Shown here: positions 10,666 to 12,636 of the stretch, piece by piece
How positions within the stretch are numbered: the stretch's first letter is position 1
How the letters are laid out: every line of letters starts with the position of its first letter
Source of the DNA: a virus
Taxonomy: Duplodnaviria > Heunggongvirae > Uroviricota > Caudoviricetes
Strand: one strand, 5' to 3'
Length of the DNA: 16,353 nt
Virus record (IMG/VR): IMGVR_UViG_2718218139_000006
Position numbers and translations under genes: made by a program
Notes under the pieces: model-generated
What the model saw: only the letters and a program-made list of their open reading frames with translations
The model's database searches: none
What the model was told of the DNA's origin: nothing

Positions 10666-12056
10666 AAACGTCCACCATTCCCACCCTTCTGGGGCCGGAC
10701 GGCATGACATCGCTGCGTGAATATGCCGGTTATCACGGCGGTGGCAGCGGATTTGGTGGGCAGTTGCGGGCGTGGAACCCACCGAGTGAAAGTGTGGATG
10801 CAGCCCTGCTGCCCAACTTTACCCGTGGCAATGCCCGCGCAGACGATCTGGTACGCAATAACGGCTATGCCGCCAACGCCATCCAGCTGCATCAGGATCA
10901 TATCGTCGGGTCTTTTTTCCGGCTCAGTCATCGCCCAAGCTGGCGCTATCTGGGCATCGGGGAGGAAGAAGCCCGTGCCTTTTCCCGCGAGGTTGAAGCG
11001 GCATGGAAAGAGTTTGCCGAGGATGACTGTTGCTGCATTGACGTTGAGCGAAAACGCACGTTTACCATGATGATTCGGGAAGGTGTGGCCATGCATGCCT
11101 TTAACGGTGAACTGTTCGTTCAGGCCACCCGGGATACCAGTCCGTCGCGGCTTTTCCGGACACAGTTCCGGATGGTCAGCCCGAAGCGCATCAGCAACCC
11201 GAACAATACCGGCGACAGCCGGAACTGCCGTGCCGGTGTGCAGATTAATGACAGCGGTGCGGCGCTGGGATATTACGTCAGCGAGGACGGCTATCCTGGC
11301 TGGATGCCGCAGAAATGGACATGGATACCCCGTGAGTTACCCGGTGGTCGTGCTTCGTTCATTCACGTCTTTGAACCCGTGGAGGACGGGCAGACCCGCG
11401 GTGCAAATGTGTTTTACAGCGTGATGGAGCAGATGAAGATGCTCGACACGCTGCAGAACACGCAGCTGCAGAGCGCCATTGTGAAGGCGATGTATGCCGC
11501 CACCATCGAGAGTGAGCTGGATACGCAGTCAGCGATGGATTTTATTCTGGGCGCTAACAGTCAGGAGCAGCGGGAAAGGCTGACGGGCTGGATTGGTTAA
11601 ATTGCCGCGTATTACGCCGCAGCACCGGTCCGTCTGGGAGGCGCAAAAGTGCCGCACCTGATGCCGGGGGACTCACTGAACCTGCAGACGGCTCAGGACA
11701 CGGATAACGGCTACTCCGTGTTTGAGCAGTCACTGTTGCGGTATATCGCTGCCGGGCTGGGTGTCTCGTATGAGCAGCTTTCCCGGAATTACGCCCAGAT
11801 GAGCTACTCCACGGCACGGGCCAGTGCGAACGAGTCGTGGGCGTACTTTATGGGGCGGCGAAAATTCGTCGCATCCCGTCAGGCGAGCCAGATGTTTCTG
11901 TGCTGGCTGGAAGAGGCCATCGCCCGCCGCGTAGTGACGTTACCTTCAAAAGCGCGCTTCAGTTTTCAGGAAGCCCGCAGTGCCTGGGGGAACTGCGACT
12001 GGATAGGCTCCGGTCGTATGGCCATCGATGGTCTGAAATCCGCTGGCGCTGAATAA
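10662..12056 (+). pseudogene. B: Portal protein B, inactivated: in-frame TAA at 11598-11600 (codon 313) and 3' truncation at a deletion junction near 12033-12040
   Basis: Residues 1-312 match lambda gpB. After the stop the same frame continues with lambda B sequence (IAAYYAAAPVRLGGAKVPHLMPGDSLNLQ...RMAIDGLK), then diverges (SAGAE*) where sequence from the 3' end of H begins. Confidence 0.9.
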
Positions 12057-12060
12057 CGTC

Positions 12061-12636
12061 ATGTCAGAGCAGAAAAAGACCTGGGCGGCTGAAGACCAGC
12101 TTCGCGGGAGCTGGATGGCAGGCCTGAAGTCCGGCTGGAGTGAGTGGGAAGAGAGCGCCACGGACTGTATGTTGCAGGTAAAAAGTGCAGCCACGCAGAC
12201 CTTTGATGGTATTGCACAGAATATGGCGGCGATGCTGACCGGCAGTGAACAGAACTGGCGTAGCTTCACCCGTTCCGTGCTGTCCATGATGACAGAAATT
12301 CTGCTTAAGCAGGCAATGGTGGGGATTGTCGGGAGTATCGGCAGCGCCATTGGCGGGGCTGTTGGTGGCGGCGCATCCGCGTCAGGCGGTATGGCTTACA
12401 GCCGTGTGTCGACTTTCTCCGGGGATTATCTCCGCGTAACTGACAACAAGGGGAAAACGCACGACGTGCTGACCGGAAGTGATGACGGTCGCCACAGCAA
12501 CACGTCTCTGGCGTGGGGAGCTGGCGTGCAGTTTAACCCGACCGAATCCGTGGCCATTGATATTGCTTATGAAGGCTCCGGCAGTGGCGACTGGCGCACT
12601 GACGGTTTCATCGTGGGTGTCGGTTATAAGTTCTGA
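12061..12636 (+). pseudogene. Chimeric ORF: internal C-terminal segment of tail tape-measure H fused in frame to the C-terminal about 80 residues of outer-membrane protein Lom
   Basis: First 110 residues (MSEQKKTWAAEDQLRG...GGAVGGGASASGG) match the C-terminal region of lambda gpH; the remainder (...SLAWGAGVQFNPTESVAIDIAYEGSGSGDWRTDGFIVGVGYKF) is the Lom/Ail-family C-terminus. Junction near 12388-12393. Confidence 0.8.

Follow-up and report, generated by a model that had tools for sequence, protein, structure and literature searches.

A lambda-like late region in which the portal gene B runs straight into the distal part of the tape-measure gene H raises the question of whether the two genes were brought together by a deletion or stand in the native order of some phage lineage, and, if by a deletion, how that deletion came about. 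This arrangement is found in the 16,353-nucleotide stretch of viral DNA analyzed here (Caudoviricetes; IMG/VR record IMGVR_UViG_2718218139_000006), which we call the window and to which coordinates refer unless another genome is named. An initial annotation, made from the nucleotide sequence and its open reading frames, had proposed that at 12025-12065 B is fused out of frame to distal H, with the removal of about 8 kb of head and tail genes from C through most of H. Our analyses make it highly probable that the late region in the window belongs to a defective lambda-like prophage at icd, in which a single illegitimate 8,140-bp deletion between B and H was one step of decay and has since been inherited.

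Junction 1 and the reading frames that cross it

BLASTN comparison of the window with lambda (NC_001416) aligned lambda 1-4212 with window 7828-12038 (98.27% identity, E=0) and lambda 12351-12705 with window 12037-12391 (98.59% identity, E=7e-178). The two matches share two bases, AA, at window 12037-12038, which could come from either gene, as lambda 4211-4212 in B or as lambda 12351-12352 in H, and junction 1 was placed on these two bases. Base-by-base three-way alignments with lambda and Sp8, a lambda-like prophage of E. coli O157:H7 Sakai, displayed B identity through 12038 and H identity from 12037, and every base of 11995-12085 was explained by B or H, with no untemplated or filler base at the junction. 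To the left lies the portal gene B (window 10662-12038, corresponding to lambda 2836-4212; Pfam Phage_portal_2), and to the right lies the distal part of the tape-measure gene H, which is 98.6% identical to lambda and carries the Pfam domain Tape_meas_lam_C. The absent segment corresponds to lambda 4213-12352, that is 8,140 bp whose placement is ambiguous by 2 bp, and according to the lambda gene coordinates it comprises C, Nu3, D, E, FI, FII, Z, U, V, G, and T, together with the last 74 codons of B (460-533) and codons 1-603 of H.

Translation across the joint explains what is left of the two genes. B starts at 10662 and its codon K459 occupies 12036-12038; in the B frame, GRMAIDGLK is followed by SAGAE and a TAA stop at 12054-12056, five foreign codons past the joint. 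The portal pseudogene, B', as delimited by translation and by its alignment to lambda 2836-4212, accordingly spans 10662-12056 on the plus strand and consists of codons 1-459 of 533, SAGAE, and TAA. Translation in the H frame across the joint reads NPLALNNVMSEQKKTWAAEDQLRG..., and since H codon 604 begins at 12037, H lies in the +1 frame relative to B. Junction 1 is a real 8.1-kb deletion, and the observation behind the initial annotation is confirmed to the base: the B-H fusion lies at 12037-12038, inside the interval proposed for it, the loss of about 8 kb amounts to 8,140 bp relative to both lambda and Sp8, and the alignment to lambda that had been suggested for locating the breakpoints, once run, fixed them with a 2-bp AA overlap. 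The fusion is likewise out of frame as had been stated, with the B frame stopping after SAGAE and H in +1, and the translations quoted for the two sides were matched by our B-frame and H-frame translations.

A further lesion of B was absent from the initial annotation. Upstream of junction 1 and in frame in B, codon 313 at 11598-11600 (plus strand) reads TAA in place of the GAA found in both lambda and Sp8 (E313*). This nonsense codon was present in every junction-1 carrier that was checked (all but locus L019), the evidence being either the sequence itself or a gene call for a 312-aa N-terminal portal fragment. The damage to both genes is already on record, as RefSeq flags B and H at this locus as two partial pseudogenes: in strain 2014C-3011 the portal gene is labeled 'internal stop; incomplete; missing C-terminus', and the tape-measure gene is a pseudogene labeled 'missing N-terminus'. 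We also observed an antisense open reading frame of 134 aa on the minus strand (11946-12350) that spans junction 1; gene callers left it uncalled in every carrier locus, and thus it is probably spurious.

Deletion, native gene order and the making of the joint

Contiguity of the two flanks in some known phage would have pointed to a different gene arrangement. Among the 252 records that match the window in a collection of 50,697 phage records, none spans the joint (0/252), and all matches end at window 12038, so that the deletion stands. An exact 27-mer across the joint had no match among the GTDB species representatives and matched one IMG/VR contig, a predicted prophage fragment from an isolate genome. 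This contig also carries E313* and junction 2 (described below), which identifies it as the same defective element. The comparison with related prophages that the initial annotation had recommended points the same way: Sp8 and the prophage of strain 2014C-4587 both hold the intervening ~8.14 kb, and the spacing between the same two flanks is 8,140 bp in lambda, 8,140 bp in Sp8, and 8,137 bp in the 2014C-4587 prophage. Of 5,426 complete E. coli genomes, 5 carry junction 1 itself, and so do dozens of draft assemblies. Three of the five closed carriers are bovine Shiga-toxin-producing E. coli (STEC) O177:H- with optical-map-verified assemblies (PMC5814490). The joint was confirmed by sequence in all 10 loci of one carrier set, and its core was located in all 10 loci of a second.

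These data bear directly on three other accounts of the joint. That B stands beside distal H as the native order of some phage lineage could draw on the presence of the joint in one IMG/VR contig classed as viral, but that contig belongs to the same defective prophage, as its E313* and junction 2 indicate, no match among the 252 phage records extends across the joint, and the fusion is out of frame with both genes truncated; we regard this account as having almost no probability. An assembly or sequencing artefact deserves thought because lambdoid prophage repeats often confuse short-read assemblies. Nevertheless, the joint sequence is identical, or only C12070T apart, in the five closed genomes, which come from three groups and include PacBio assemblies verified by optical maps, and the draft assemblies that share the joint are independent of one another, which leaves an artefact scarcely credible. 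Recombination between two prophages at different chromosomal sites, one contributing the stretch from int to B' and the other the stretch from H' to tfa, would make the joint the mark of a larger chromosomal rearrangement and not of an internal deletion. STEC genomes do contain many lambdoid prophages (up to 24 matching places per genome), and the nearest relatives of the H' island and of the B' flank differ. However, both arms are syntenic with one prophage, Sp8, at the same site in Sakai, and mosaic nearest relatives are usual in lambdoid phages and need no rearrangement, so that we hold recombination between two prophages to be very improbable.

For the internal deletion, the bases shared at the breakpoints give no sign of a homology-driven process. 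When 200,000 random breakpoint pairs were drawn from lambda, an overlap of at least 2 bp occurred in 16.5% of them (P=0.165), and the 2-bp overlap at junction 1 was consequently rejected as meaningful homology; lying within chance expectation, it provides no argument for microhomology-mediated joining. No IS end, repeat, att-like site or site-specific recombination site was found at junction 1, and the sole IS in the window, IS600 at 941-2204, is located away from it. The initial annotation had noted very short shared nucleotides at the junction and suspected illegitimate recombination; the former number exactly two, and the latter is supported by an overlap no greater than chance gives. From the lack of homology and of mobile-element sequence, we infer that the junction 1 event was a homology-independent (illegitimate) deletion. 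A single internal deletion of 8,140 bp would thus have joined B codon 459 to H codon 604, and the joint may have been made by homology-independent end joining or by replication template switching; homologous, site-specific, and IS-mediated recombination would have had no part in it. The sequence bears no signature by which a gyrase-mediated event, replication slippage, template switching, and end joining could be told apart. The product of the B-H deletion is probably without function, B' ending five codons past the joint.

Junction 2, further lesions and the course of decay

To the right of junction 1, only a short piece of H remains. This H' island (12037-12391, plus strand; 355 bp, lambda 12351-12705, H codons 604-721) lies between two deletions, shares 98.6% identity with lambda H, 96.1% with H of the 2014C-4587 prophage, and 93.0% with Sp8 H, and accounts for the Tape_meas_lam_C match (E=6e-22). 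Its right end is junction 2, a second deletion of ~6.6 kb situated 353 bp downstream of junction 1, at which the end of H, M, L, K, I, J, and the start of lom were lost. An alignment display with lambda H and the lom gene of M16807 places junction 2 at 12388-12391, where H and the closest lom allele overlap by the four bases GGTA; in the same random-breakpoint simulation, the probability of an overlap of 4 bp or more was 0.02. From window 12385 on, the sequence is 99.7% identical to lom of many E. coli prophages, and the retained 3' third of this Ail/Lom outer-membrane protein gene ('lom, 12392-12636, plus strand), which aligns to Sp8 from 33991 onwards, ends at the native stop and matches Pfam Ail_Lom at profile positions 113-199 of 199 (E=2.5e-43). 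A terminator-like hairpin follows just 3' of the lom stop (12663-12684, plus strand), with a G+C-rich 8-bp stem and then a T run.

Because junction 2 is in frame, an open reading frame of 191 aa (12061-12636, plus strand) runs from an internal Met of H through H' to the lom stop and combines the Tape_meas_lam_C and Ail_Lom domains. The substitution C12070T turns codon 4 of this chimera into a stop in the O177-type carriers and in loci L023 and L024, and for carriers of C12070T the gene callers give 173 aa or 224 aa in place of 191 aa. No promoter-like site for the chimeric frame was found in 11500-12800. Given this result, the 5'-truncated Q gene described below, and the C12070T stop in O177-type carriers, the chimera is unlikely to matter; it is most likely a non-functional by-product, presumably not expressed.

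Apart from the two gaps, the late region is collinear with lambda. Window 4810-7827 aligns by BLASTN with lambda 45500-48502 and directly precedes lambda base 1 at 7828, where the late region starts with the left end of the lambda map (the cos end) and the leader before nu1 (7828-8016, plus strand, by alignment to lambda). Three intact genes follow on the plus strand in the list of open reading frames, each of the same length as in lambda and each supported by Pfam matches in carrier loci: nu1 (8017-8562, 181 aa; Phage_Nu1), A (8537-10462, 641 aa; GpA_ATPase/GpA_nuclease), and W (10459-10665, 68 aa; gpW). Beyond 'lom, window 12509-13608 aligns with lambda 19458-20557 at 87.7% identity (BLASTN), and the side tail fibre gene (12695-15772) and the tail fibre assembly gene (15772-16353) are retained, both on the plus strand, as judged from the open reading frames and the RefSeq annotation of 2014C-3011; the stretch 12695-16353 has partial homology to lambda orf-401, orf-314, and orf-194.

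The left part of the element is damaged as well. The integrase gene int contains an IS600 element (IS3 family; open reading frames of 100 and 272 aa) at 941-2204; these 1,264 bp are missing from the int allele of the closed genomes, and the ends of the element overlap that allele by 3 bp, which we read as a probable target duplication. An early-left remnant at 2776-3622 holds leftward open reading frames for a DUF4222 protein and a DksA/TraR zinc-finger protein, its portion 3086-3622 corresponding to lambda 30418-30955. It is joined at 3621/3622 straight to a 5'-truncated Q gene (3589-4191), which lacks ~33 profile positions at its N-terminus and is annotated as partial in RefSeq. This direct fusion means that the recombination, immunity, replication, and nin genes are all missing. 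With the head protease, scaffold, decoration, capsid, head-completion, tail tube, and tail chaperone genes and most of the tape measure lost, the prophage would be unable to build particles, and judged by its gene content the element is a defective (cryptic) prophage, in which E313*, junction 2, the 5'-truncated Q, the lost early region, and IS600 in int are inactivating lesions additional to junction 1. The retained cos and terminase genes prompted us to consider a phage satellite of the PICI type as well, which was rejected: collinearity with Sp8 or lambda extends along the whole element, the called genes include none for replication or capsid redirection, and Q and int are damaged.

The carriers of the scar are closely related, with a divergence among them of at most 0.3%. 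Contig PVZZ01000002.1 of GCA_003015365.1 has no mismatches to the window over 14.3 kb and shares its IS600, while the other carriers differ by 3-25 substitutions or by another insertion (L008); all five closed genomes have a further 733-bp deletion (2681-3413). The exact 135-aa product of the B' tail is encoded on 61 contigs, the 191-aa chimera on 30, and the 173-aa variant on 17. The scar probably arose once and would have been inherited in an E. coli lineage that includes O177:H- and whose members are mostly bovine or Shiga-toxin-producing.

Junctions 1 and 2 were detected in exactly the same five complete genomes, the former never occurring on its own among complete E. coli genomes, and junctions 1 and 2 and E313* occur together in every locus of the first 10-locus carrier set. 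In the second 10-locus set, junction 2 is present in 8 of the 10 loci; the exceptions are L023 (SRR6440054; region 3390-4489) and L024 (DRR275199; region 3390-4480), two Logan contigs in which junction 1, E313*, and C12070T are present and junction 2 is absent. In both contigs, H turns from ~200 bp past the joint into a divergent allele, 82.7% identical to lambda, that continues to the natural end of H and into M. When the 224-aa H fragment of L023 was used as a protein query, the exact protein was not among the matches. Two 224-aa look-alikes were considered as the form with junction 1 only and rejected, since each proved to be part of an H gene that is contiguous, though fragmented by frameshifts, and has no connection with the joint. 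Two short-read contigs with junction 1 and lacking junction 2 suggest that junction 1 came first, and we think it probable, provided that L023 and L024 are not chimeric, that junction 1 is older than junction 2 and that recombination afterwards replaced the distal H of one lineage, an order of events drawn from just these two contigs.

Formation of both junctions in one damage-and-repair event, leaving the 355-bp H' island between them, would account for their joint presence in the same five complete genomes, in 10/10 loci of one carrier set and 8/10 of the other, and for a distance of just 353 bp. We nonetheless consider a common origin rather unlikely: L023 and L024 are independent assemblies that carry junction 1 and E313* and lack junction 2, both run unbroken where a branching assembly graph would normally break contigs, and the junctions themselves differ, with overlaps of 2 versus 4 bp, out of frame in one case and in frame in the other. 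Selection might also be invoked, the remnant having been domesticated by a deletion that disarmed the prophage yet kept useful parts. In every carrier examined, nu1, A, W, stf, and tfa have remained intact, and the chimera is in frame to lom's own stop. On the other hand, O177-type carriers have a stop at codon 4 of the chimera, Q is truncated, no promoter-like site is nearby, and int is hit by IS600 in this strain; moreover, carriers no more than 0.3% apart would be expected to have intact neighbouring genes, including nu1, A, and W, with no selection at all. Domestication therefore appears very doubtful to us, whether the useful parts are taken to be cos, nu1, A, and W, lysis genes, bor, stf and tfa, cargo genes, or the H'-'Lom chimera. 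We attach just as little probability to the retention of the cos-nu1-A-W module or the chimera for the benefit of the host, with the B-H deletion as the disarming step; were it true, a co-resident lambdoid phage could, for example, act as the helper that packages the icd-ompT region.

We thus return to the inherited illegitimate deletion, which would form part of a longer decay that also includes the nonsense codon in B, the 6.6-kb H-lom deletion, the loss of the early region, the truncation of Q, and, in this strain, the insertion of IS600 into int. Such a history is textbook lambdoid prophage decay, a known kind of event with no new biology. The scar provides a base-resolved example of how STEC lambdoid prophages may lose morphogenesis genes through homology-independent deletions. 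It also constitutes a stable lineage marker, and E313*, junctions 1 and 2, C12070T, the 733-bp deletion, and IS600 can be used to type the lineage and to order the steps of decay.

Comparison with Sp8, lambda and the cryptic prophages of K-12

The window starts inside int, and its placement at icd is taken from the element of strain 2014C-3011, which, where the two can be compared, is 99.7% identical to the window and lies between icd and ompT like Sp8 in Sakai. The left arm in 2014C-3011 reads icd-int-xis, the right arm contains tfa, the Mn catalase gene, ferritin-like genes, a hydrolase gene, and ompT in this order, and the order in Sakai matches. This right arm carries non-phage genes as cargo in the O177-type strains (L001 18974-25523; L028 1270-10269) and in O157 Sakai, namely an Mn catalase, two ferritin-like DUF892 proteins, a KGG stress protein, a methyltransferase, a partial tfa, an alpha/beta hydrolase, and ompT, an arrangement reminiscent of the DLP12-ompT neighbourhood in K-12.

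Sp8 is accordingly the closest system for comparison: it occupies the same site at icd, its integrase and excisionase are 99% identical, its late-gene order and its right-arm cargo from the catalase through ompT agree, and identity reaches 97.8% over window 3621-12038. Sp8 lacks a repressor and an anti-repressor and conserves all morphogenesis genes (Asadulghani et al. 2009, PMC2669165), and in Sakai it showed no circularization, replication or packaging (PMC2669165). In contrast to Sp8, the window is without 8,140 bp between B' and H' and 6.6 kb between H' and lom; Sp8 furthermore retains the replication and nin region and has no E313*, whereas the window has lost that region and has E313*. 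With all its morphogenesis genes, Sp8 represents the expected pre-deletion state of the late region. The ancestor would nevertheless have been a mosaic and not Sp8 itself, as the H' island resembles lambda H (98.6%) more than it does Sp8 H (93.0%). As for lambda, the two flanks of junction 1 are 98.3% and 98.6% identical and the lengths of nu1, A, and W are the same, but lambda 4213-12352 is absent from the window, where B and H are only fragments.

In the cryptic prophages of K-12 (DLP12, Rac, Qin, and e14), which arose by the same process of decay, internal deletions have removed head and tail genes, and what remains includes lysis genes, bor-like genes, pieces of packaging genes, and genes for tail fibres and tail-fibre assembly. 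Several RefSeq names on the 2014C-3011 element are DLP12-derived (nohD, rzpD, ybcV, ybcW, and ylcI). Compared with the K-12 cryptic prophages, the element of the window is younger and at an earlier stage of decay, since its terminase genes and W are intact and its scars can still be resolved to single bases by comparison with near-identical intact relatives. The pool of defective prophages of O157 is a product of the same decay process (PMC2669165).
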